NCBI GenBank assembly: GCA_000004695.1
Contig: CM000151.3
Location: 5,856,001 to 5,920,000, forward strand
From: Dictyostelium discoideum
Taxonomy: Eukaryota
Direction: 5' to 3'
Length of the DNA stretch: 64,000 bases
Below, piece by piece: positions 42,567 to 60,335 of this stretch. Position numbers and translations under genes: made by a program. The number at the start of each line of letters is the position of its first letter. Positions within the stretch are counted from its first letter, which is position 1. Under the pieces are notes generated by a model. The model made no database searches, had not been told where the DNA came from, and saw only the letters and a list, made by a program, of their open reading frames with translations.

Positions 42567-43851
42567 ATAATATAAAAAAAAAAAAAAAAATATTTAAAAA
42601 GCTTAAAAATAGAATAAAAAAATAAAATAACCTTTAAAAAGAGATGTTAGAAATTGATGGTATAAATAAATAAATAAGTTAAATTAAAAAAAAAAAAAAA
42701 ATAAATAAATAAGAAAATAAAAAAAATTAAAATAATTAAATAAAATCATAATTATAAAATAGCAACTTTGTATAGCTTATAACCTTAAAAAAAAATGTTA
42801 TCGCAATAATGGTAATAATAGTATAAAAACTATTGTTCTAGTAATAGGTTTTTTATTTTTTTTTTTTTTTTTTATTTTTTTTTTTGATATGTTGTTTTTT
42901 CTTTCTTTTTTAATATAATAATTTGTCATATTAATCTCACATTTTTGGTATCACCCCATTTTTTTATTTTTTTTTATTTTTTTATTTAATTTTTTTTTTT
43001 TTTTTGATGTTGTTGGGGTGTTTTTTTAAAAAAAAAAAAATAAAAAAGATAATTTAAATAATGATAAAATTAATAACAATAATTATAAAATAATAATAAT
43101 AAATTAATACGGGGTATTGACAGATGATAGATAGATAGAGAAGTTAATATTGTTTAATTAAATTTAATTTATTAAAACCAAAAAAGAAAAAAAAAAAAAC
43201 CAATTAACTTAAAAATGGGGGAATTTTTTGTTGTTTATTAAGTTTTTTTTTTTTTTTTTTAAAAATTTTTATTTTTTTAATTTGTTTTTTTTTTACATTA
43301 TATTTTTTTACACTTGTTCATAAAAGTAATTACCCACACAACAAACCACTAACACAATATATTTTTTTTTTTTTTTTTTTTTTTTATCAACAGTTAATAT
43401 AGTTTAATATTTTCCCAAAAACAAAATATTTTAATTATTATTTTTTTTTAATTCACAACTGCACAACCAAATAATTGAAAAATATATACACATATAAATA
43501 ATATAAAACATATATATTAATTTCAATTTTAGTTCAATAATAACAACAACAAAAAAAAAAACCGCACCCCTCAACAGCAAATTTTAGTAATAACCTTTTT
43601 TTTATTAATTAGACCCCAAGTATAATGGCATTTGGAACCCAAAAAGAATCATCATCTTCATCATCAATTTTTAATAATTATAATATTAGCAATAAACAAC
43701 AAAAACAACAACAAGACAATAATAAAAATAATTCAAATCTATCAGTATCATCATTTTTTTATCAAATTAATAATCACATTCACAGTTTTGCCACTCAATT
43801 TTATTGGAAAGAAAACTTAGATTCACCACATTGTAAAGAAGGTTCTAAAAG

Positions 43852-45855
43852 ATGTTGCTTACCCCTCAACAATTCAATGATCCTCGTTATGGATCACCAA
43901 CAGAAAAATATTTGGCTTTATTAGAAAATACCCATATAACTTGTCGTGGAAATATAATTTCAAATCAACAACAACAACAACAACAACAACAAGAGCAACA
44001 ATCAACAGGATCCTCACCAAAATCACAAACAATAAAAAATTCATCAAATAATAAAAATAATAATAATAATACCTCACCAAGAAAAAATAAAAATAAAAAA
44101 TCACCAACAATGAATAGTTTCAATAGTAATAAATTATTTAAAAAATCATTAACATCCTCTTCTGATTCATCCTCTGATGAATATTCAGAGAGTGAAGAAG
44201 AAGAAGAGCAAGTAGAGGAGGATGAAGAAAATAGTGACGAAGGTGATTTAAATGATAAATCTACTAAATTCCTTTCAAATAACCAAAAATCCATTCATGA
44301 ACAAGAGGATTTAGCAGATGATGATTCTTCTGACTTAGATAGTAACCACCACCAAGAGGAAGAAGACTATTCATTAACCTCTGAAGAGGAGGAAATCTTA
44401 TCGGATGATGAATCAACTGATAAATCATCATCATCAGAGGAGGAGGAAGATTCTGAATCCGAGTCAGAATCAGAAGAAGAATCAGGAAATGACTCATCAT
44501 CATCGGTAACAGATGAATCGGATGAAGAAGATCATAATAGAGAATGGTCAAATGTAAATAGTAATCTCAGCTTAAAAAAGAGTGTATCATCAATACTTTT
44601 CAAGTTTACAGATTGTGATTCAACCAGTGATTCAGATGAGGAAATGGATAGTAGCAGTGGCCAAGAAGGTTCATTCTCTGATAAAGACATTGATGTTTTC
44701 GATGACTCATTCCTTCAAGTACCAACATCTTACTCTATCAATATCTCTCCCAGAAAATCATCTGAACAATTAAAACAACAAAGTGGCGACTTTGAAGAGG
44801 TTGATGGAGGTTACCTTGGCCAAAAACCACTCGTTTCCAAAATAAATGAAAACAAATTTAATAATGGTTCTGTGGCTTCATCTGATGATGATGATGATGA
44901 ACTTAACAATGGCAACAACAATAGATACTATGACGATAGTGAAGAAGAGTTAAATAGAGAGATTGTAAAAAGAGAACAAGAGAATGATAAAAAAGTATTG
45001 GTTGCAATTAGAAAATCAATTAATGGTATAAACTCTGGTGATAATGAAAGTATGGTGGAAAAACCATGTTGGTATGGTTTTGAAGATGATAATCATATCA
45101 AGGTTATCTTTCAACATTATTCTTCTTTCTTGCAAATTGATCAAGAGGTTAAACATACATTACGTGGCCCAAAACCTTTCATTGGCAGAGTTCATCGTAG
45201 AGCTATCAAATATGATGGTGGTGAGGTTGGTTGTAAATTCACCACTTTGGACACTGTAAAAGTTTATCGTTGGGAAATTCAACCAATTGGTAGACCCCTA
45301 AATCTTTACAAATCATTTGTATTATTAACACGTTGGGATGAAGAAAATGGCTTACCTACCAAATTTCAAAAGGTAAACTCTCTCTCAAACAAAGACTTTT
45401 GGGCAAATGAAGCAAAATCTTTAAAATCCCAAAGTAAAATCTCCTCTTACTTGTATTGCTCACCAATGTTTGATACTGATTTCACTTTTAATTATTCAAT
45501 TGACTCTGAAAAATATCCAGTTGATTTCTTACCAAATAGTCCAATACTATCAAGTAGAAGACATCATAATCATCATCACCACAGTAATAGTGATGGTGGT
45601 TTTGATCATCAACAACAACAACAACAAAACCATCACTCACCAAAACAATATCTTCATCCTTTAACTAGTTTAAATCGTAACAACAAATTATCAGATTCTC
45701 AATTGTTACCATCAATCAAAACACCAACTTTATCAGTTGGTGGTATAGTACCTCAAAGAAGATCAAGTCATCCTTCTCTTTTATTATCCTCACATATTTA
45801 CTCTCATTCAATCACTTTTGGATTTAAAGATAAATGTAATAATGATTTAAATTAA
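43852..45855 (+). CDS. Acidic Ser/Asp/Glu-rich protein (667 aa) with a conserved C-terminal globular domain
   Basis: A long (SSD/SEEEE)n acidic region is followed by ..KPCWYGFEDDNHIKVIFQHYSSFLQIDQEVKHTLRGPKPFIGRVHRRAIKYDGGEVGCKFTTLDTVKVYRWEIQPIGRPLNLYKSFVLLTRWDEENGLPTKF.. The overlapping upstream ORF 43625..43924 is in a different frame and was not joined. Confidence 0.55.
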   Translation: MLLTPQQFNDPRYGSPTEKYLALLENTHITCRGNIISNQQQQQQQQQEQQSTGSSPKSQTIKNSSNNKNNNNNTSPRKNKNKKSPTMNSFNSNKLFKKSLTSSSDSSSDEYSESEEEEEQVEEDEENSDEGDLNDKSTKFLSNNQKSIHEQEDLADDDSSDLDSNHHQEEEDYSLTSEEEEILSDDESTDKSSSSEEEEDSESESESEEESGNDSSSSVTDESDEEDHNREWSNVNSNLSLKKSVSSILFKFTDCDSTSDSDEEMDSSSGQEGSFSDKDIDVFDDSFLQVPTSYSINISPRKSSEQLKQQSGDFEEVDGGYLGQKPLVSKINENKFNNGSVASSDDDDDELNNGNNNRYYDDSEEELNREIVKREQENDKKVLVAIRKSINGINSGDNESMVEKPCWYGFEDDNHIKVIFQHYSSFLQIDQEVKHTLRGPKPFIGRVHRRAIKYDGGEVGCKFTTLDTVKVYRWEIQPIGRPLNLYKSFVLLTRWDEENGLPTKFQKVNSLSNKDFWANEAKSLKSQSKISSYLYCSPMFDTDFTFNYSIDSEKYPVDFLPNSPILSSRRHHNHHHHSNSDGGFDHQQQQQQNHHSPKQYLHPLTSLNRNNKLSDSQLLPSIKTPTLSVGGIVPQRRSSHPSLLLSSHIYSHSITFGFKDKCNNDLN

Positions 45856-46159
45856 AAAAAAAAAAAAAAAAAAATTTATTTAATCATTTAAAAAAAAAAA
45901 AAAAAAAAAAGAAAAAAAAATATGTAAAAATATCTAATCACGCCATATATCTCTCTGTAAATAAATAAAAAACATTTTTAAAAAAAAAAAAAAAAAAAAA
46001 AAAAGAATAAAACATTTTAAAAATTCCTTTTTTGGGAAATTAAACAAAATTTTTTCATTTAAAAAAAAAAAATAATAAAAAAAAAAAAAATCATTAAAAA
46101 AAAAAAATCATAAAAAAAAAAAAATTAAAAAAAATTGATTTTCAATTATTGAATTTTTA

Positions 46160-46192
<33 letters not shown>

Positions 46193-46524
46193 TTGTTTTG
46201 TTATAAAGAATCCTTGAAACGAGGTAAATATACATATTAAAAACATTATAGTCCATTACAACCATTTTAAACCCCCCAACCCACACCACGCATTAAAATT
46301 TATTTAATTTTAATTTTAAATACTCTATAAGGGGGTGGTAACTTTGATTTAGAATTTTATTTTTTTTTATTTTTCCATTTTTTTTATATTTTTTTATTTG
46401 TTTTATTATTTATAGTTGGTTGTGTAACATAAAATCAAAAATTTTATAATTGTTATTTCAATTTAATACCACCATACTACCACTACCATTATATTAATAA
46501 TACAAATATAAAAGTTTATTGTAT

Positions 46525-46587
<63 letters not shown>

Positions 46588-46707
46588 AATATCACATTAA
46601 TAAACACAGACACACAAACATACATACACATTAAATTTATACAAATATATAAAAATACATTCATAATTTAGACTTGTTGTAATTGTTAATAATTTTTTTT
46701 TATTTTG

Positions 46708-46742
<35 letters not shown>

Positions 46743-47116
46743 ATTGTCCCCTCTTTGGGTCATCTTATATAATCCTTTCTACTAATCAACTTGTTTATAG
46801 AAATTTATGTTTTTATTATTGTTATTTTCTATTTTTATTTTATATTACAATAACACTTATACAAATTAATTTTTTAAATTTCTTTCTAAATTTCCACACT
46901 TTTTTATTATTTTTTTTTTTTTTTTTTTTTTTTTACTTACTGTTAATTTTTTTTTTTATTTTTTTTTATTATTTCATTTTATTTTATTTTAAAATTTCAT
47001 ACATATCAAAATAAAAAATTAATTTTATATGTATTTTTATTAATAAAATTTTTTTTTTTTCTCTCTTATTTTTTAAATAATAATAATAATAAAAAAAAAA
47101 AAAAAAAGAAATAAAA

Positions 47117-48832
47117 ATGTTAAGAGGTATTGAAATTAGAGGAAAAGTTGATAAAAATGTTAAATCAATATTAACAGAAGAGTGTTTAACATTTTTAGGA
47201 GAATTAGAAAGAAGATTTGGAGGTATTAGAAAGAACTTATTACAAAAGAGATTAGATAGACAAATTGATATTAATAATGGTATTTTACCAAGTTTTTTAA
47301 AGGATAGCGATTGTAAGAGAGCCACAGATAAGAATTGGAAATGTTCTTCAGTACCATTAGAAATTCAAGATCGTCGTGTTGAAATTACCGGACCTACCGA
47401 TAGAAAGATGGTAATCAATGCATTGAATTCAGGTGCTAAAGTATTTATGGCAGATTTCGAGGATGCAAATTGCCCAAATTGGGAAAACTCGATCCACGGT
47501 CAACAAAATATGATTGATGCAAACAATAGAACCATTTCATTCACTTCAGCAGAGGGTAGAAAATATGAATTAAATAAACAGGTGGCAGTACTTTTCGTCA
47601 GACCAAGAGGTTGGCATTTAAATGAAGATCATTTAGCTATTGATGGTCTTTCAATGTCTGGTTCTTTATTTGATTTTGGTTGTTATATTTTTCATAATCA
47701 TCAAATTTTAAAAAATAGAAATTCAAATCCATATTTTTATTTACCAAAAATGGAATCACATTTAGAAGCAAGATTATGGAATGTAAGTTTAATTTAATTT
47801 AATTTATATACAAAAGAAAAAAAAAAATATATATTAATATATTAATATATTTTCTTTTTTTTTAAGGATGTATTTGTATTTTCACAAAATTATTTAGGTA
47901 TGCCAATTGGTACAATTAAAGCAACAGTATTAATTGAAACTATTTTAGCATCATTTGAAATGGATGAGATTTTATATGAACTTAGAGATCATTCAGCTGG
48001 TTTGAATTGTGGTAGATGGGATTATATTTTTAGTTTTATAAAGAAATTCCAATCATATCCAGATAAGATGTTACCAGATAGAGCAAAGGTAACAATGACA
48101 AGTCCATTCATGGATTCCTATGTAAAGTTATTGATTTACACTTGTCATAAGAGGGGTGTACATGCTATGGGTGGTATGGCTGCACAGATTCCAATTAAAA
48201 ACAATGAACAAGCAAATAATGCAGCTATGGAAAAAGTTAGATTGGATAAACAAAGAGAGGTTAGAGCTGGTCATGACGGTACCTGGGTTGCCCATCCAGC
48301 TTTAATTCCAATTGCAATGGAACAATTTAATACTCATATGAAATCTCAAAATCAAATTTCATACATTCCATCATCAACTGCTCCAAATTTTGAAGAGATT
48401 GCTAAATCATTGTTATCAGTCGACCCTGTTAAACCAGGTGATATCACTGAGGATGGCTTTAGAAGTAATATCGTTGTTGGTATTCTATATCTTGAAGCTT
48501 GGTTAAATGGTAATGGTTGTGTACCAATTCATAATCTTATGGAAGATGCTGCTACCGCTGAAATTTCAAGATCTCAAATTTGGCAATGGATTAAACATAA
48601 AGCACCATTACCTGATGGTAAATCATTCGTTACCCTTCAATATTACAATAGAATCTTTAAAGAGGAATCTGATAAATTGGAAAAAGCTCATCCAAATTCT
48701 AAAACTTTAACTGATGCCATTCAAATCTTTAATAATTTAATTGTCTCTCCAAATTTCATTGACTTTTTAACACCTTCTTGTTATAAATTTGTTGTCGATT
48801 CTGAAAGAAAAACTTTTTCTCCAAAATTATAA
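47117..48832 (+). CDS. Malate synthase (glyoxylate cycle); exons at 47117..47782 and 47867..48832; C-terminal SKL is a PTS1 peroxisomal/glyoxysomal targeting signal
   Basis: Colinear with malate synthases (..PTDRKMVINALNSGAKVFMADFEDANCPNWENSIHGQQNMIDA.. and the catalytic region ..LRDHSAGLNCGRWDYIFSFIKKF..RAGHDGTWVAHP..). Donor TGGAAT|GTAAGT and acceptor AG|GATGTATTT are both in phase 0. It ends ..TFSPKL*. Confidence 0.9.
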
Positions 48833-49492
48833 AAAAAAAAAAAAAAAAATAAATAATAAAATAAAATTAATTAATAAATAAGAATAATCATGAGTTTCCC
48901 CAAAAATAAAAAAAAAAACCTTTGATAAAAATAAAATTATTATTAAAATATTTTATTTTTTATTTTCATCTTTTATTGCTGGAGTATACCATGTTTCATT
49001 TTCCAAATCAGATAATCCTGGCAAAATTTTGATAAAATAAATATTAAAATAAAAATAAAATAAATATTCTTTGATTATTAATTTATTTATTAGTGTATCT
49101 TATTGTTTTTATACAAATTTACAATATTTCCTACTGATTTTTGAAAATGGAACTTTTTTACAAGTTTTCCAGGATTAATTGATTTGGAAATTTTTAAAAA
49201 TGCAGCAAAAAAAAGATGAAAATAAATAATAAAATATTTTAATAATTATTTTATTATTATCAAAGGTTTTTTATATTTTATTTTATTTTTTTTTTTGGTG
49301 AAATTTAAAAAATTATTAATAAATTTAATAATTTTTATTTTTATTTTTTTTATTTTTTTTTCATTTTTTGTTTTTAAAAAAAAGAAAATTAAGAGGAAAT
49401 TAAAAAATAAAAGTAAAAAAAAAAAGTGGCTCCACCAGCACCGCATAAATAACTTAAGTGATGAAATTTTAACAACTTAAAAATAATTATTA

Positions 49493-49532
<40 letters not shown>

Positions 49533-49994
49533 AGGTAAAATAAACAATATTGTGAAATATATATTATGAATTATTTTTAAAGAAAAAATTTCAAATTCTG
49601 GAACTCACATTTTTAGGCTATGAAAGTTCTTTTTTAATTTCATTAAAAAAAAAAAAAAAAAAGTAAAAAATAAAAGAAATAAAAAAAATATATGAAACGT
49701 TAATTGTTTTTATTTTTTTATTTTTTTTTTTTTTTTTTGATTAATTTTTTTTTTTTTTTTTGGTCAACTATAGGGGGTTTTTTTTTTTCTTTTTTTTTTT
49801 TAATTTTTCTTTTAATTAATCAATCCACTAAAAAAAATAAAAATAAAAATATAGAAAAATACAAGAAACATTCAATTGATAAATCATATTTTTTTTAAAT
49901 TTAATTTTTTAATAACTCAATCTATACATATAACCTTACTTTTTTTTTTTTTTTTTTTTTGGTATTTTATTTTTGTAATATATTATTTTAAAAA

Positions 49995-50888
<894 letters not shown>

Positions 50889-51571
50889 GGTTAAATTGTA
50901 AACACCCTATTAATAACTCTAAAGGATTCATTTTTTTTTTTATACATTTTCATTTTTTTTTTTTTTTTTTTTTTATTTACCCATAAATAATTTAAGTTAA
51001 CCTGGATTGGTCTGTATATTTTTAATATTTTCTTTCTTTTTCTTAAAAAAATTGTAAATAAAATCATTTTCTTTCTTAATATCTTAAATTTTTTTTTAAT
51101 AATCATTATCTATTGTAATTAATATGTAATTTGCAGTATATTAATTTTAGTGGTTTTTTTTTGATTTTTTTTTTTTGCGTTGTATGAATTGCTGGTTTTT
51201 TTTTTATTGATCGGTTTGTATTTCTAGCCGATTTGCCAAGGATTGCCTGTATTTTTTGAGGCGAGCCATCTCCAGTTGAGCTTACTTATTACGAAGGAAG
51301 GCCAAGATTCTAACCAAAGTCTGTGAAGTTTCTTATGTAAAAGGCTTTTTTTATTTTAATATCGATTAATCAGTGTTTATCCATTTAAGGATATAAACAG
51401 TAATTAATAGTTTACTAATGATTTTTAATTTTTTTATAGTTATTATTTTAGTTTATCATCTAATAGAGAATTTATATTTTTTTATAAAAAAATAACAAAA
51501 CCAACAATAACACTATTTTATATAGTTTTAATTACTATCTCCTTTTTTTTTATGAAGACATTTTATTACTG

Positions 51572-51629
<58 letters not shown>

Positions 51630-51910
51630 TTATTTTATTTTTAGATGAATTGGTCGAATGAGATAAGATTCGTTAGCACTGATTCAGAATACAATATACT
51701 TTGCAAGTTAGTTTTCTTAGTTTGATTATTTGTATATGGAAATCTTTTGGGTCGTTAAAATTACTTGGATCTTTTGAAAGAGTTAATTTTGAGTCTTTTG
51801 CTTTTTTTATAAATTTTAGGGTGGCTAGTTTGTACCATTTATTATTTAAGCATTTTACATATGAGTAGTACTTTTTAGTTTAGATTTTTTTCAAACATTT
51901 GAAAGTTTTA

Positions 51911-51936
51911 TCGTACGGGAATCGAACACTTGCACC
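51911..51936 (-). promoter_or_regulatory. External B box (exB) downstream of the tRNA-Gln gene
   Basis: The minus strand reads ..TGGTGCAAGTGTTCGATTCCCGTACGA. It is a second B-box/T-arm-like GTTCGATTCCC element about 23-45 bp 3' of the tRNA. It is not part of a complete tRNA. Extra downstream B boxes of this kind are a known feature of Dictyostelium tRNA genes. Confidence 0.5.
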
Positions 51937-51958
51937 ATTTAAATTTTATTATAAAAAT

Positions 51959-52030
51959 GGTTCTACTGAGACTCGAACTCAGATTACAGGATTCAAAGTC
52001 CTGGGTGCTAACCAATTACACTATAAAACC
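51959..52030 (-). tRNA. tRNA-Gln(UUG): tRNA-Gln (anticodon UUG), 72 nt
   Basis: The minus strand reads GGTTTTATAGTGTAATTGGTTAGCACCCAGGACTTTGAATCCTGTAATCTGAGTTCGAGTCTCAGTAGAACC. It folds as a 7-bp acceptor stem, D arm, anticodon stem CCAGG/CCTGG with loop CTTTGAA (anticodon TTG), and a T arm (TGAGT TCGAGTC TCAGT) with an internal B box GGTTCGAGTCTC-like. Confidence 0.85.
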
Positions 52031-52176
52031 TTTGATGTTTTTTTAATAAAAATACATCATTAGATATAAAATATTTTAAATAGGAAAAAATAAATATTAA
52101 TATTTTATGTTATTGATTAAAAAAATAACTAGTATGTCATAATAAAATAATTATTTATTTTATTCAAATTTGAATA

Positions 52177-52680
52177 CTATTTAATATAGTTGAAAAACAA
52201 ATATTTATAATTCGATTGTTTCTCCATCCAATGGGATTTTAACATTTGAATATTTATTTTTTTGACATAGTCATTCAATTCTTTACGAGAAAGAATGCAA
52301 CCATGTTGGCAAGATGTTAAATGTAATGTAATACCATTGAATTCTAAACCTTCTTTTAGTGTTCTTACATCTTGAAACCACATTTTCTTACTTGATCCGC
52401 ATCAATTCCATTTTGACAATAAATTAGTTTCTCTTTTGGTAACACTTTTTTTGCAACTTCATCCCAATGATCTGGATGCAAATGAGTTTATAAACTTTCT
52501 GTTGGTACTGGTAATCCCACCATTGGATTTCGAATATGAGAATTTACTGTACCTTCAAATCTGGATATTCATCTTTTTGCCAACAAAGGATCTATTAAAA
52601 ATTTCTTTCCTCCATACTTTAAAACAAATGTTGCATTTCTAATTAATTGAAAACTATCTTTATTATTCATTCCTTCTTTT
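52177..52680 (-). pseudogene. Fragmented pseudogene of an MBL-fold metallo-hydrolase (Lactamase_B_2/COG2220 type, NAPE-PLD-like)
   Basis: The minus strand reads MNNKDSFQLIRNATFVLKYGGKKFLIDPLLAKR* .. GTVNSHIRNPMVGLPVPTESL* THLHPDHWDEVAKKVLPKEKLIYCQNGIDADQVRK (frameshift) MWFQDVRTLKEGLEFNGITLHLTSCQHG... It has the THxHxDH metal-binding motif and the N-terminal LIDP block. There are at least 2 in-frame stops and 2 frameshifts in 500 bp, and the C-terminus is truncated. Confidence 0.6.
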
Positions 52681-53270
52681 AAAAAAAAATAAAATACAAT
52701 TAAATTATTTTAATATATTTATATATTATTTTTTTTTTTCCTTTTTTTTATTTTTTTTTTTTTTTTGTTAAAAAGTTTACCACACAGCCAGCACTTGTGT
52801 TTTGTGTTGTTTTTATGAAATGAAAAAAAATCAAATAAAATGCTTAAAAAAATATAAAAATAAATTATAATATATTTTTTTTTGAAATTTTTACTTTATA
52901 TTAAATTAAAAAAGAAAGTTGTAGCAACATGGACGAACGATATCGTCAGGATTTATTCAGATAGCGTAGATACCAGCGCAACTTTTTCTTCCTAAAAATC
53001 ACAAGGCACATCTAAACATGTTAGATACATCTCAAAGGTTGATTTAAAGGGTTAAACTATAAATTCTAAAATTCAATAACAATTTTTTTAAGTTTAAACC
53101 TCTATCGTCTGTAATTTATGGGAATTTTTTTTAAAAAAAAAAAATTTTGGTTGCTTTGGCGAAAAAAAAAAAAAAAAAAAAAAATAAACAAAAAAAAAAA
53201 TATCTTTTTGTGTGGTTGATTTGGTGAAAAAAAAAAAAGAGAAATTTATTTACAAAGATTTTTTTTTATT

Positions 53271-53493
53271 TTAAGTTTTTAATAGTTTTCTTTGACCATC
53301 TTGTTCTTCATTAACATTGCTATTGTTGTTATTACTATTACTATTGTTGGTATTACTATTTGTGAAATCTCTAGAAATTGAACGTTTTCTTGGCAAAATA
53401 TTATTTTTATTTTTATCGTCATCCAAATTATTTTCATTACTTTGATTATTGTTATCATTATCATTATCATTATTATTACTATTATTATTGTTA

Positions 53494-53549
<56 letters not shown>

Positions 53550-54420
53550 GTTATTATTTAAAATGCTTTCCATATTTGAACTACCGATACTTCCAATTGA
53601 TAATCTATAATCTCTTGATGATTTTCTAAATCTATCATCATAGAAACCACTTTCATTAATTGGGGCAAAGTCGATACTACCACTGAACAATCCCTCTGGT
53701 AAGAATGTACTATTTCTTCTTTCAAAGATACTTATTTTCCTCTCTGAAAAGAATGGATTACTATTTTTTCGAAGCGGATCATTAAATGAAAATAATCCAT
53801 TTTGAATACTATTCTTTCTCTCAAAGAATGGATCGTTGTACATCATTGAATCTCCATAGTTTGGTGGCGGTATAGTATTGGTAGACATTGGATTTGGTAT
53901 TATAATATTTATACCACCGCTATTATTTGAAGAGGGGGTTGATGCTTGAATTATATCGACGCTATTACTACTACTTCCACTACCACCACCACCACCGCCA
54001 GAACTATTATTACCATTTGTACTACTACTACTGCCACTGCTACTGCTACTACTACTACTATTGTTGTTGTTATGGTGATGGTGATGATGATGATGGTGAT
54101 GATATTGAGAGGGTGTATTATTACTATTTACACTATTATTTGAATTATTTAAATTGGGAGTCGAAAGTGTTGCTGGTGAATGAGCGGTATTCGCTCCACC
54201 AGGTGTTGAAGAATAACTACTTGTTGAAGGAGAATCAACAGTGGTTTGTGGTTCATACTCTGGAGATATCGTATACTCTGGTAATTTTATTGCTTGTATT
54301 GGTGTAAGAGAAGATAAAACAATTGGTATATCTTGTGGAGGTGGTTGTTGTTGTTGGTGTTGTTGGTGTTGTTGAATTGGTGGTACATTTTTATTTTGTT
54401 GTGAAATTTGGTTTGATTTA

Positions 54421-54499
<79 letters not shown>

Positions 54500-55169
54500 C
54501 TTGAATTATTGACATTGAAGGGGGTTGTAATTGTTGTGGAGTGAATTGGATATGATGTATTGGTTGTTCAGTTGTTGGTATTGTTGTAGACATTGTTGTT
54601 AGTATTATTGGTGGTTGTTGTAGTTGTTGTTGTGAATGCTGTACAGGTGATTTCAATAAATTCAATTGCGAGGTGTTATTGATATTTTCTCTTTCTAATT
54701 TATCTTTAGATTGTTGCTCTTGTTGTTTTTCTAGTTTCTCTTTTTCCTCTTTCTCCAATCTTTCTTTTTCTTCTTTCTCTTGTTTTTCTTTTTCTTTTTC
54801 TTGTTTTTCCTTTTCCTTTTCTTGTTTTTCTTTTTCCTTTTCTTTTTCTTTTTCTTTTTTCTCCTTGTTTTTTTCTTTTTCAGTTTTTTTCTTTTCTTTT
54901 GATTTCTGTTTGGTTTCTTTCTTTAGAGACTCTTTTGTTTTTTTATCGGATTTCTTTTTATCTTCTTTTTTAGATTTTTTAATTGGTTTTTCATCATTAT
55001 TATTTGAGGTTGTTGTGGTAGTAGTTGTTTCTTGTGTATTGTTATTATTATTAAAATTTTGTTGGGGTGGTTGTTGAGGTTGTGAAATCTGTTGTTGCAA
55101 CTGAGATCGTTGTTGTGATAATTGTTGTTGTTGCCCATTATAAAGATAAGGGGATGAATCTTGTGGAAT

Positions 55170-55263
<94 letters not shown>

Positions 55264-56098
55264 GGTGGTGGTGGATGTTTATTTTCAATTTGATGATATA
55301 AATAAACTGAAGGTATATTACTTGAATATAAAACTGAATTTTGTGAAGTTTTATATTGATTTTCTCGTGAATGCATGATCGAAGTTTTTGGATTAAATGA
55401 AAATAAAGTTTGATAGAAATAAGATGCTAACCTATTTAAAGATTCTTGACCACCACTATTCTTAAAGAATGTCGTATCCGTTGTAATATATTCACGATGA
55501 ATATGTTGAAGATGTTGTTGGTGTTGATCCATCATTTGTTGTTGTTGTTGGTGTTGTTGATGTTGTTGATGTTGTTGATGTTGTTGTTGCTGTTGTTGTT
55601 GCTGTTGTTGCATATGATGTTGCTGCATATTTTGAGGTGGTGATCCTGTAGAATTTTGTTGAGATGGTTGTTGTTGTGGTTGTTGTTGTTGTGGTTGTTG
55701 TTGAGATGGTGATATAGATTGTGGTATTAAATAATAAGGTTGAGGTTGTTGTTGTTGTTGTATTGGTCTTTGCGTTTGAATCAATGCTTGAGGTGTTGTC
55801 GAATTATAAGGTTGTGGTTGGTGTTGTTGTTGTTGTTGTTGTTGTTGTGGATTATATACATTATAATAACCATTACCATCTTGCAATGCTGGTGGTTTAT
55901 TTTGTTGTTGGTGTTGTTGCTGTATTTGTTGTTGTTGTTGTTGTTGCCAACTTGAAATTCCTTCTTGAGGTGATAGTGGCATATATCTTGGTTGTGGCGG
56001 AGTTACAGAACTTGTAATTACAGATGACCCACCTCCTACCATCACTCCTGAACCAGGTTGGTGGTACATTGTTTGCATTTCTTGTTGATATTTAAAAT

Positions 56099-56176
<78 letters not shown>

Positions 56177-56372
56177 GATGATGTTGCTTCCAACTATTAA
56201 TTAATGGTGAATTGTTTTGAATATTATCATTAATATTACTATTGTTATCGTTATTTCTACCTTGAAAATTAATATTGTTGCTAAAATTAATACTATTAGT
56301 TTTTAGAGTTGTGTTGTTGTTGTTATTGTTAATATTTAAATCGCTATGGTTATTAGATGAATGATATGTCAT
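53271..56372 (-). CDS. Low-complexity Gln/Asn-rich protein (1033-aa ORF) with a central Lys/Glu-rich charged region
   Basis: One long ORF with (CAA)n-encoded poly-Q, poly-H and poly-N runs, a KEKEKEKQEKEKEK block, and a less repetitive region ..FFERKNSIQNGLFSFNDPLRKNSNPFFSERKISIFERRNSTF.. The antisense poly-V/poly-L ORFs are artefacts. No domain was recognised. Confidence 0.5.
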
Positions 56373-56715
56373 TAAAATTTAAACATATGCCTATGTATGT
56401 GGTGGATTTTTGATAGATAAAACGAGTTTTGTTTTTATCTTTATTGTACATAATTGTTTTCATACATGGGAACAATGAATAGAATTTGGACAAATAGGTT
56501 TATATGTAATACAATATATTTTTTTTTTATTTAAAAAAATTTTTAAAATTTTAAGGAATATATTAAAAACACAAAAAATTAAAAAAAAAAATAAAAAAAT
56601 AAAAAAAGAGGATGGTATATGTGAACGTTTGGACTACAAAAAAAAAAAATAAAAAAAAAATTAAAAAAAAATATTTTTGGGTTTTTTTTTTTAAAAAAAA
56701 AAAAAAAATAAATAA

Positions 56716-56746
<31 letters not shown>

Positions 56747-56836
56747 TTTAAATTAATTTAATAAAAAAAAAAATTAATAAATAGATTTTTTTATTTTTTT
56801 TTTATATTTTTTTTATTTTTTTTTTATTGTGGGGGT

Positions 56837-56872
<36 letters not shown>

Positions 56873-56948
56873 AAAAAAGAAAAAAACAATTAAAGTTTAT
56901 TTCTTTTCCTGTTATTTATTATTTATTATTAGTATTATTAGTAGTAGT

Positions 56949-57038
<90 letters not shown>

Positions 57039-58705
57039 TTTTATTATTATTTTCTTATAAAATATGTTTTGGATTGTAATTTATTTATATTAAAAGAGTA
57101 TAAAAAAAAAAAAAAAAAAAATTATACCACAATAAATTAAATTAAAAATGGTGGTGGGGTTTAATTGAAAAAAATTAATGAAATTATTAAGGAATTATTT
57201 TTTTATATTAAGAATTTAAACATTTAAAATACTAATAACGACATTATTAATTTTACAAAAACATAAAAGTAAAAAAAAAAAAACAAATCCAACATTGGAT
57301 AATCCTATTTTTTTTATTTTTTTATTTTTTTATTTTTTTTATTTTTTTTTGAAAATAAACTTACAATTATTGATAGATAGGTATTAAAATATAAAATTAT
57401 ATTCTATTATATTAATTAACCTTAAATAAAACAAAAAAAACAAAAAAAAAAAAATAAAAAAATAAAAAATAAAAAAAGAAATTTTAAAAAATGAAATAAA
57501 AAAAAAAATAAAAAATAAAAAATAAAAAATAAAAAATAAAAATAAAAAAAAGTGAATAATTAAATGAAAAAAATAAAAAAAAAAAGAAAATAAATAAAAA
57601 AAAGGGGAGGTGCTAATTGAATCATATGCAAAGTAATTAAATTAAATTAAATTATTGTTATTTTAAAAGGTTATTTTTTTTTTATATGTTTATGTGGGTG
57701 AGTGTGGGGTACTTTTATTTTATTTATTTATTTATTTTAATATTAAATTTTTTTTTTTTTTGATATTTAATTTCAAAAATAAAATTAAAGTGCATGCTAG
57801 TAGCGAGCCTTTGATATTGATTTTTTTTTTTTTTTTTTTTTTTTCTTTTTTTTTTTTTTTTTCCAAGATGGTAGTATGATCAATAATGATTATATTAATC
57901 AACTTGTGATATTTTGAGAGCGAGTGAGAACACGTGTGTGGTAGTGTGGGTGATTTTAATTTTATATGTGTGTGTTTGTTGAATAAAATGTCACACAAAA
58001 TATCTAAATATTATTTTTTTTTTTATTTTTTTTATTTTTATTTTTTTTTTTTATTTTATTTTTTATTTTTATTTTTATTATTATTATTATTTTTTTTATA
58101 TTAAATAAAAAAAAAACATTTCCAAATTGAATATACTCTCATCAAATTCATCTCTTGGTATTAAAAAAAAAAAAAAAAAAAACAATTGTTTTAATTATTT
58201 TATTAATATTTTCATTTACTATTTTTATTGTAACCAAAACAAAATATATCATTTTTAAAAAATCGATTTCTGTTTCATTTTTTGTATTATTTTATTTTAT
58301 TTTATTACTTTATTTTATATAAGGTTAGTTTTTTATTTTTTTTTATTTATTTTTATTTATTTTATTTTATTTTATTTTATTTTTTTTTAGTTTATATTAT
58401 TTTAATTATTTTGTTTAGTTGCAAATATTAAAAAAGGTGATATGAGTTTTATAAATTCTTTCTTAATTTAGTTAAAAAGTGATATTAAAACAAAAAAAAA
58501 AAAAAAAATTAAAAAATTATGGATTATAATAATTTTCTATTTAATGATTAAAAAAGACAGTTTGAAATATGAATTGAATTGTAAAAATGTTAATATTATT
58601 ATTATCTTTTTTTATAATTAATTTTTGGTACATTCAATCTTAAGAAAAAAAAAAAGAAATTTCTGTATTTTGGAAGTAATCTTTATAAACAATAATAAAG
58701 GGGAG

Positions 58706-58743
<38 letters not shown>

Positions 58744-59084
58744 TGTAAAGTGGATTACATATCACATATTAAATAAAAATATATTTTTTAGGACCTTTTA
58801 AAATCGGTGGTCTTTTTTTTTTTTTTAAATTTTTTTATTTTTTTTTTTTTTTTTTTAATTTTTTTTAGAAAAGTTGATTAGAGTTCTAATTAAAGTCCAA
58901 TTTAGATCTGAAAGAAAATTAAAAAAACCTAAATTTTTTTTTTTTTTATTCCTATATTTGTTTAAAAAAAAAAAAAAAGAAAAAAAAAAAACAATGATTG
59001 TTTTTATTTTTTATTTTTTTTGAAATTTTTTTATATTATTAGTTTTAAAAATAAAAAATTTTGGCCATGAAGGCAATTTATTCA

Positions 59085-59134
<50 letters not shown>

Positions 59135-59149
59135 TTTTTTTTTTAATTA

Positions 59150-59180
<31 letters not shown>

Positions 59181-59589
59181 GTTTATTTTTTATTTTTTTT
59201 TTTATTTTTTTTTTATTTTTTTTATTTTTGTGTGTCTGGTTTTACATTAAAAAATAAAGGATAGGTGCAAAAAATTTGAATTTGATTTGAAACTTTTAAA
59301 AATTCTTTCATTTACTTAATTAATTAAAAAAAAAAAAAAAAAAGAAAAAAAAAGTTTTTGAAATAAATAATTATAAATCACCTTTTGCGGTTATTTCTCC
59401 CAAATAAACTTTTTTTTTAATTTTTTTTTTTTATCTAATTTTTTTTAATTTTAAAAAAAAACCAAAAAAAAAAAAAAAAAAAAACCAAAAAAATAAAAAT
59501 TTTTATTTTAAAAAATAACATAGATAAAGAAAAAAAAGGACTGGAGAACTCAACTGTTCAATCGTAGTCAAAAAAAAACTATAGAACGT

Positions 59590-60335
59590 ATGAGAAAAGA
59601 AAGAAATAACCAAAGTGTTGAAATGGATAGCCACACCTTTAATAATAATAATAATAACAATAATAATAATAATATTAATAATAATAATAATATTAATAAT
59701 AATAATAATAATAATAACAATAATAATAATAATAATAATAGCATTAATAACTATGGGCATCAACATCTTAATTCTTCTTCATCATCACAAAGCTTTCAAG
59801 ATCAGCTTGTTCAAGATTTACAAAGTATTTTAATGGCTCAACAACACAATATAATATCTCCACAATTACAACAACAACAACAACAACAACAGCAACAACA
59901 ACCATCTTTTAATAGTAACAACAATAATAATAATAACACCAACACATATAATTTCCAACCAGAAGCAATTGAAAACAATAATATAGGTATTAATAGTAAT
60001 GGATATAATCCCATACAACAACAATTTCAACAACAGCATCAATTACAACAGCAAATACAACAACAACAAATTCAGTTTCAAAATCAAAACCAAAATCAAC
60101 AAACACATCAAAACCGACAATTACAACAGCAACAGCAACATCAAATACAACAATTACAATTACAACAACAATTACAACAACAATTACAACAACAACAACA
60201 ACACCAACAACAATTACAACAACAAATGCAACATCAACAAATGCAACAACAACAAATCCCACATCATCAACAAAACCAACAATTGCAACAACAACAACAA
60301 CAACAAGTTCCACATCAGCAACAAAACCAACTAAT

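Follow-up and report, generated by a model that had tools for sequence, protein, structure and literature searches.

What gene once stood on the minus strand beside a tRNA-Gln gene of Dictyostelium discoideum, and how was it lost? The question arises at positions 52177–52680 of a 64,000-nucleotide stretch of DNA (the window), which we take to be part of chromosome 2 of strain AX4; its open reading frame (ORF) at 43852–45855 matches DDB_G0275737 of D. discoideum AX4 exactly in a protein comparison, and its composition and poly-Q/poly-N ORFs point to the same source. A first-pass annotation, made from the sequence alone, had seen in this part of the minus strand an MBL-fold hydrolase gene interrupted by in-frame stops and frameshifts. 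Inspection of the frames and comparison with homologs bear this reading out, and the peptides that it quoted (KFLIDPLL, THLHPDHWDE and EGLEFNGITLHLTS..H) are all present on the minus strand, spread over three frames.

To place the relic in a family, we used as a query a 156-amino-acid translation of the AX4 copy with its frames repaired by eye. The best match in the protein search was a 263-amino-acid protein of Dictyostelium dimigraforme (P0001; E = 4.2e-73, 81% identity). Next came over 100 bacterial MBL fold metallo-hydrolases, 255–265 amino acids in length (E down to 1.9e-46, 45–61% identity), the top ones from Bacteroidota (Olivibacter, Chryseobacterium and Chitinophaga), with the nearest at 54–61%. 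Homology of the relic to MBL hydrolases is far above chance. Pfam made no call on the repaired relic (best model Lactamase_B_3, E = 0.06, below the cut-off), so the family identification comes from the homologs; the intact D. dimigraforme ortholog is called Lactamase_B_2, and most family members are annotated merely as ‘MBL fold metallo-hydrolase’. The solved structure nearest to the D. dimigraforme protein is 6BRM, the putative metal-dependent isothiocyanate hydrolase SaxA (E = 1.3e-79), with 124 of 255 aligned positions identical (about 49%) across residues 10–263. It is followed by 3RPC (E = 2.6e-68) and then, distantly, by a UPF0173 hydrolase. The repaired AX4 reading also matches 6BRM (E = 1.5e-38), in two blocks that flank a 294-bp deletion and map to SaxA residues 5–130 and about 229–257.

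The first-pass annotation had offered two identities for the gene, a NAPE-PLD-like enzyme or a horizontally acquired hydrolase of bacterial type. We rejected the former: the solved-structure matches at E ≤ 0.01 comprised only SaxA 6BRM, 3RPC and the UPF0173 hydrolase, with no NAPE-PLD chain among them. Because its closest solved structure is SaxA, we class the relic as SaxA-type, and the bacterial-type alternative agrees both with its relatives and with the tree described below. SaxA-type isothiocyanate hydrolases convert plant isothiocyanates to amines and carbonyl sulfide (PMC7303113; see also PMC7036374), and from the 49% identity to SaxA we infer that the ancestral gene may have hydrolysed isothiocyanates. 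The fungal enzyme SsSaxA shares only about 20% identity with bacterial SaxA (PMC7303113) and is therefore a different, more distant case.

The D. dimigraforme gene provides an intact counterpart for the relic. It is a continuous 792-bp ORF of 263 codons in a single exon on a 3.3-Mb contig (L001). Taking 97% conservation or more among 39 homologs as the mark of an invariant position, we counted 42 such alignment columns; the D. dimigraforme protein has the consensus residue at every one. Its gene is flanked by the ortholog of a Q-rich gene (which encodes 1,033 amino acids in the window) and by tRNA-Gln(UUG), with malate synthase beyond. This succession of Q-rich gene, MBL gene, tRNA-Gln and malate synthase is common to L001 and to two further assemblies labelled D. 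discoideum, GCA_054859385.1 (L002) and GCA_054859355.1 (L006), which we call lineage B. Given that the window has the same gene order as D. dimigraforme, the intact gene is the ortholog of the relic, and the comparison with a sister species that had been suggested at the outset thus yielded an intact gene at the syntenic site. A literature search on the D. dimigraforme genome returned nothing relevant. In the window, the tRNA-Gln(UUG) gene lies outside the pseudogene at 51958–52030 (minus strand, the same as the relic; ARAGORN, and Rfam tRNA at 67.4 bits), and it is conserved at this locus in three lineages. The relic had been placed about 150 bp upstream of tRNA-Gln; the neighbour is right, and the distance from the ancestral stop is in fact 174 bp.

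We called the lesions of the relic by a codon-level, colinear DNA alignment to the D. dimigraforme coding sequence (L001: 10001–10792), and compared them with Logan contigs L003 and L004 from two independent runs (SRR26869248 and SRR26869268), which are about 99% identical to AX4 here. On the minus strand, the relic occupies 52205–52670, or 466 bp versus 792 bp in the intact ortholog. The ancestral ATG (52670–52668) is kept in L003 and L004. A 2-bp deletion in an A-run (GCAAAAAAAGAT to GCAAAAAGAT, junction 52578–52579), found in the AX4 reference only, shifts the frame into a TGA (52571–52569), which is an out-of-frame consequence of that deletion. Together with a 1-bp deletion in the Gly39 codon (CCAGGATTT to CCAGATTT, junction 52561–52562), common to AX4 and L003/L004, it puts AX4 back in the ancestral frame. 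A 21-bp deletion, also in L003/L004, then removes codons 63–70, including the invariant Asp66, and its junction makes a TAA (52490–52488) that is the sole stop in the ancestral frame and directly precedes THLHPDH. The HxHxDH metal-binding motif itself survives at 52484–52467 (CAT TTG CAT CCA GAT CAT, HLHPDH); H72, H74, D76 and H77 are invariant in the 39 homologs. Further on, a 1-bp deletion common to AX4 and L003/L004 (junction 52373–52374) shifts the frame at codon 109 and results in an out-of-frame TAA (52367–52365), and an in-frame 3-bp deletion at 52335/34, present in all D. discoideum-type alleles, has no effect.

The largest lesion is a 294-bp internal deletion (CAACATGG/TTGCATTC, junction 52300–52301) of codons 134–232, with a 2-bp TT microhomology at its junction. 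It occurs in the AX4 reference only; L003, L004, L002 and L006 all keep the block. AX4 thereby lost the greater part of the catalytic domain's C-terminal half, with the motifs GDT and ATHMEAINH; of the 42 invariant residues, 16 are gone, among them D169 (of the GDT motif), H226 and H232. Downstream, a 1-bp deletion at codon 246 (junction 52260–52261), shared by AX4 with L003/L004 and absent in L002 and L006, leaves the last 17 codons (NKYSNVKIPLDGETIEL*) in another frame. The ancestral stop, a TAA at 52207–52205, is kept in L003 and L004. Several details of the first-pass description change as a result. Breakage was rightly recognized; instead of at least two in-frame stops and two frameshifts, there are four frameshifting deletions (−2, −1, −1 and −1 bp) and one stop in the ancestral frame. 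The C-terminal third, described as lacking, is not what is missing: the loss is internal (about 37%, codons 134–232 of 263), and the final 31 codons (CILSRKELNDYVK..NKYSNVKIPLDGETIEL*) are still present. Position 52177, taken as a gene boundary, is the end of an out-of-frame ORF. The metal-binding set of MBL enzymes (HxHxDH, a later His, an Asp and a C-terminal His) is incomplete, with HLHPDH and the His of QH(133) remaining and D169, H226 and H232 gone. Because of the four frameshifts, the nonsense codon before HxHxDH and the 294-bp deletion, the AX4 relic cannot encode an enzyme.

The other alleles are disabled too, each with its own set of lesions. L003 and L004 share four disabling lesions with AX4 (a −1 bp deletion, the −21 bp deletion with its TAA, and two further −1 bp deletions), have neither the 2-bp nor the 294-bp deletion, and are broken by two additional frameshifts that AX4 does not have. 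Lineage B has a TAA at codon 9, deletions of 169, 1 and 51 bp, a GDT-to-GVS change and a CAA-to-TAA change. We found no disabling lesion demonstrably common to AX4 and lineage B. The AX4 lesions at nucleotides 96–97, 115 and 189–209 fall within the 169-bp deletion of lineage B, and that at nucleotide 325 falls within its 51-bp deletion, so a shared first inactivating hit could have been erased. The two lineage-B assemblies are only about 80–89% identical to AX4 across a syntenic region of about 15–20 kb (window 43000–60000); within the relic, lineage B and AX4 differ with dS of about 0.09–0.11, and L002 and L006 differ from each other by 2.3%. This divergence is much larger than we would expect within one species, and L002 and L006 may therefore represent a cryptic or mislabelled sister species.

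Could the locus nonetheless be a functional gene, its stops and frameshifts removed by introns, programmed frameshifting or editing? Automated annotation has built a spliced 145-amino-acid model (P0114) over the locus in another assembly; however, this model has no significant Pfam match to any MBL family. The intact orthologs are single-exon genes (ORFs of 792 bp and 777 bp), and each break in AX4 is a loss of sequence compared with an intronless gene, nothing intron-like having been inserted, so splicing cannot restore the reading frame. Even a perfect repair would still be without the 98 internal codons that hold D169, H226 and H232, and the lesions differ among lineages. We therefore consider a working gene here extremely improbable, and the earlier judgement that this is a pseudogene and not a spliced gene stands, because the relic is colinear with its ortholog and every break is a deletion, never an insertion. 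A related concern is that the decay might be an artefact of the AX4 reference, with homopolymer miscalls and clone deletions in AT-rich DNA concealing a gene that is really intact. In favour of this, neither the 2-bp A-run deletion nor the 294-bp one occurs in L003 and L004, which are 99% identical to AX4, and exact-sequence look-ups of two AX4-specific ORFs (68 and 33 amino acids) gave no match in other assemblies, so both deletions are seen in the AX4 reference alone; they could be clone or assembly artefacts. By contrast, the four lesions shared with L003 and L004, the TAA among them, recur in contigs of two independent runs and so are not reference-assembly errors. L003 and L004 add two frameshifts, the lineage-B assemblies are disabled as well, and no intact D. 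discoideum protein of the SaxA-type family was among the matches listed. That the gene is really intact is thus highly improbable, and the pseudogene verdict holds regardless of the two AX4-only deletions.

Taken together, these data identify the relic as a genuine unitary pseudogene. It is 81% identical to the D. dimigraforme protein at the syntenic position, and its lesions are beyond repair by splicing. Although a search for a functional paralog had been proposed, the best 120 matches of each of three protein searches, which included AX4 proteins, contained no intact D. discoideum paralog; the D. discoideum matches listed were only fragmentary gene models over the relic itself.

The substitution pattern bears on when the gene was lost. 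Between D. discoideum-type alleles and the intact gene, dN/dS was 0.17–0.19 at a dS of about 0.45–0.49. The comparison of the AX4 lineage with lineage B gave 0.31 (Fisher P = 0.002 versus neutrality) with one lineage-B allele and 0.57 (not significant) with the other, and that of the two lineage-B alleles gave 0.51 (not significant). These are Nei–Gojobori estimates, which are crude for such AT-rich DNA, and the counts are small (at most 31 substitutions). The low dN/dS against the intact gene suggests that inactivation was recent, late on the D. discoideum branch, and that it was possibly independent, occurring in parallel in the AX4 lineage and in lineage B.

Where did the gene come from? 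Among the best 120 matches per search, the only eukaryotic members were from D. dimigraforme, Polysphondylium violaceum, Leptomonas pyrrhocoris and Lotmaria passim; the rest were bacterial, and no protein of D. purpureum or of a further dictyostelid was among the best 120 in the three protein searches. The proteins of D. dimigraforme and P. violaceum are mutual best matches (54% identity). The P. violaceum gene is an intact, continuous, single-exon ORF of 777 bp on a 74-kb contig. The two intact genes of dictyostelids lack introns, are AT-adapted (GC3 of 0.16 and 0.25) and are embedded among eukaryotic genes, as fits bacterial ancestry and long residence; they are not syntenic with each other. 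In a neighbour-joining tree of 258 columns, built and bootstrapped with our own script, the dictyostelid pair (74% bootstrap) stood beside a Bacteroidota clade, and its union with the trypanosomatids received 46%. Judged by this tree and by the distribution of the family, one old transfer followed by repeated loss would be the most economical reading, with two transfers from related donors as the alternative; at this moderate support, the two are not told apart. The trypanosomatids, which live in the insect gut, have full-length SaxA-type members (P0028 of Leptomonas pyrrhocoris and P0207 of Lotmaria passim) that are 50–51% identical to the D. dimigraforme protein, an apparent further spread of this gene from bacteria to protists.

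Two alternatives concern the ancestry of the gene and the cause of its decay. The relic might descend from a vertically inherited eukaryotic MBL gene, such as a NAPE-PLD-like one, and not from a bacterial-type gene. NAPE-PLD and the SaxA-type family do fall under the same broad MBL Pfam models, which would make such a descent conceivable. The solved structures that match at E ≤ 0.01 and the four eukaryotic species in the best-120 lists both argue against it, and we hold vertical descent to be most unlikely. The other alternative follows from the tRNA neighbour: the gene could have been destroyed by tRNA-targeted retroelements (TRE5, TRE3 or DGLT-A) or by a rearrangement that they caused. The integration sites of TRE5 lie some 50 bp upstream of tRNA genes and those of TRE3 some 100 bp downstream, and in D. 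discoideum 61% of the tRNA genes have such an element (PMC5391098); the first-pass annotation had likewise called this position favoured by retroelements. The link that it drew to the decay fares differently. In AX4, the alignment with the other alleles runs uninterrupted through the relic and its 174-bp spacer to the tRNA, the AX4 lesions are 1–2-bp indels or simple deletions with short homology, and the alignments contained no retroelement or foreign sequence at the lesion junctions. A blastn comparison of the surroundings of the AX4 tRNA (51000–52000) with the window and the other loci found no convincing retroelement remnants. In D. dimigraforme the orthologous tRNA does have an element with RVT_1 past it and a spacer of 1.6 kb on its upstream side, and yet the gene there is intact. 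Because no lesion involves a retroelement, a tRNA-targeting cause is unsupported, and we regard it as very unlikely.

The surroundings of the relic yielded several further observations. The D. dimigraforme element (L001: 12506–16284) is a two-ORF, non-LTR-type retroelement, with a 111-amino-acid ORF followed by a 1,147-amino-acid ORF containing RVT_1. Its start lies within about 25–100 bp past the orthologous tRNA-Gln, a TRE3-like location. There are poly(A) tracts, and perhaps more element fragments, in the 1.6-kb spacer that separates this tRNA from the intact MBL gene. In L003 (positions 1002–1306; SRR26869248), the sequence diverges completely from AX4 and the other loci right after the 3′ end of tRNA-Gln, possibly through a polymorphic insertion or a mis-join through the multi-copy tRNA gene, and the L003 sequence beyond the tRNA was left out of the comparisons. 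In the window, a B-box-like GTTCGATTCCC lies at 51917–51927 on the minus strand, 31 nucleotides downstream of the tRNA-Gln 3′ end; it resembles what we take to be the ‘external B box’ downstream of many Dictyostelium tRNA genes.

On the other side of the relic, between it and the Q-rich gene, a block of about 145 nucleotides (about 53065–52920, minus strand) is about 95–97% identical in AX4, L002 and L001, and the intergenic DNA that flanks it barely aligns. About 60 nucleotides before this block stands a perfect DUSE, TCCCATAA (53123–53116, minus strand), and a T-run follows the block. The DUSE consensus, [AT]CCCA[AT]AA, is found about 63 bp upstream of Dictyostelium non-coding RNA genes (PMC3188802), and, going by its conservation and these flanking signals, the block looks like a non-coding RNA gene of no classified type. 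It had no Rfam match at E ≤ 10, does not contain the class I motif CCTTACAGCAA, and its predicted fold was of no exceptional stability (z = −0.59). A second DUSE-like octamer, ACCCATAA (50971–50978, plus strand), lies downstream of a 297-amino-acid ORF, with a somewhat GC-richer 170-bp block (51175–51345) about 200 bp past it. This second block had no Rfam match, showed background similarity (87%) to lineage B and had no match in D. dimigraforme; octamer and block are probably nothing.

In light of these results, our favoured reading, to which we assign a probability of about 0.9, is that positions 52670–52205 are a unitary pseudogene of a single-exon, SaxA-subfamily MBL hydrolase of bacterial ancestry, recently lost and decaying neutrally. 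The sequence of events would run as follows. A gene for an MBL metal-dependent hydrolase of about 260 amino acids, of the SaxA (isothiocyanate hydrolase) subfamily, would have come from bacteria, Bacteroidota-type sequences being the nearest, and would have entered the ancestor of group-4 and violaceum-complex dictyostelids. Purifying selection would have kept it, and at the syntenic D. dimigraforme site it is intact to this day. Function would then have been lost recently in the D. discoideum complex, perhaps more than once, and the remains would now be decaying neutrally through homopolymer slippage and short-homology deletions.

These findings matter mainly for annotation and evolution; they leave the understanding of known systems unchanged. 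The relic gains a precise identity, SaxA-type, with a complete list of lesions against an intact ortholog. AX4, a 99%-identical strain and a divergent lineage together form a natural series for the neutral spectrum of indels and deletions in an extremely AT-rich genome. A candidate bacterium-to-dictyostelid transfer is added, one that would escape lists drawn up from D. discoideum, since in the model species nothing but a wreck is left. More tentatively, and with less than even odds in our estimate, the gene might have encoded an isothiocyanate hydrolase from a Bacteroidota-like soil bacterium that was long under selection in the lines descending from the group-4/violaceum-complex ancestor and is now being lost independently across D. 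discoideum-complex lineages. If so, nature would have knocked out in the laboratory model D. discoideum a gene for plant-toxin detoxification that is still in use in D. dimigraforme, and the Leptomonas and Lotmaria members would suggest that protists feeding on bacteria or living in guts have captured it repeatedly. Should the D. dimigraforme enzyme hydrolyse isothiocyanates, the question would become why some soil amoebae keep a defence against glucosinolate products and others lose it.

Comparison with known systems places the gene among three of them. The D. dimigraforme ortholog aligns end to end with SaxA of Pectobacterium (PDB 6BRM); its HxHxDH motif is present and no family-invariant residue is missing. 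Unlike SaxA, the AX4 copy is dead and its host is a eukaryote, and the sequences nearest to the dictyostelid genes are from Bacteroidota, whereas the characterized SaxA enzymes are of gammaproteobacterial origin. Sucgang et al. (2011) listed 16 candidate transfers from bacteria to Dictyostelium (Table 2; PMC3188802). The SaxA-type gene resembles these in being bacterial-type, intronless, AT-adapted, resident in dictyostelid chromosomes and patchy in eukaryotes. It is not on that list, which has no Lactamase_B_2 entry, as expected given that D. discoideum retains only a wreck: 16 of 16 listed genes are intact in D. discoideum with D. purpureum orthologs, whereas the SaxA-type gene is a pseudogene there. 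A literature search for the relic pseudogene or for horizontal transfer of MBL genes in Dictyostelium found nothing relevant. As in unitary pseudogenes generally, the gene occupies one syntenic locus, where a sister species has it intact, and the broken copy bears frameshifts, a nonsense codon and deletions, its state of decay differing by lineage or strain; against typical members of that class, the relic is unusual only in its foreign ancestry and, possibly, in its parallel inactivation in two lineages.
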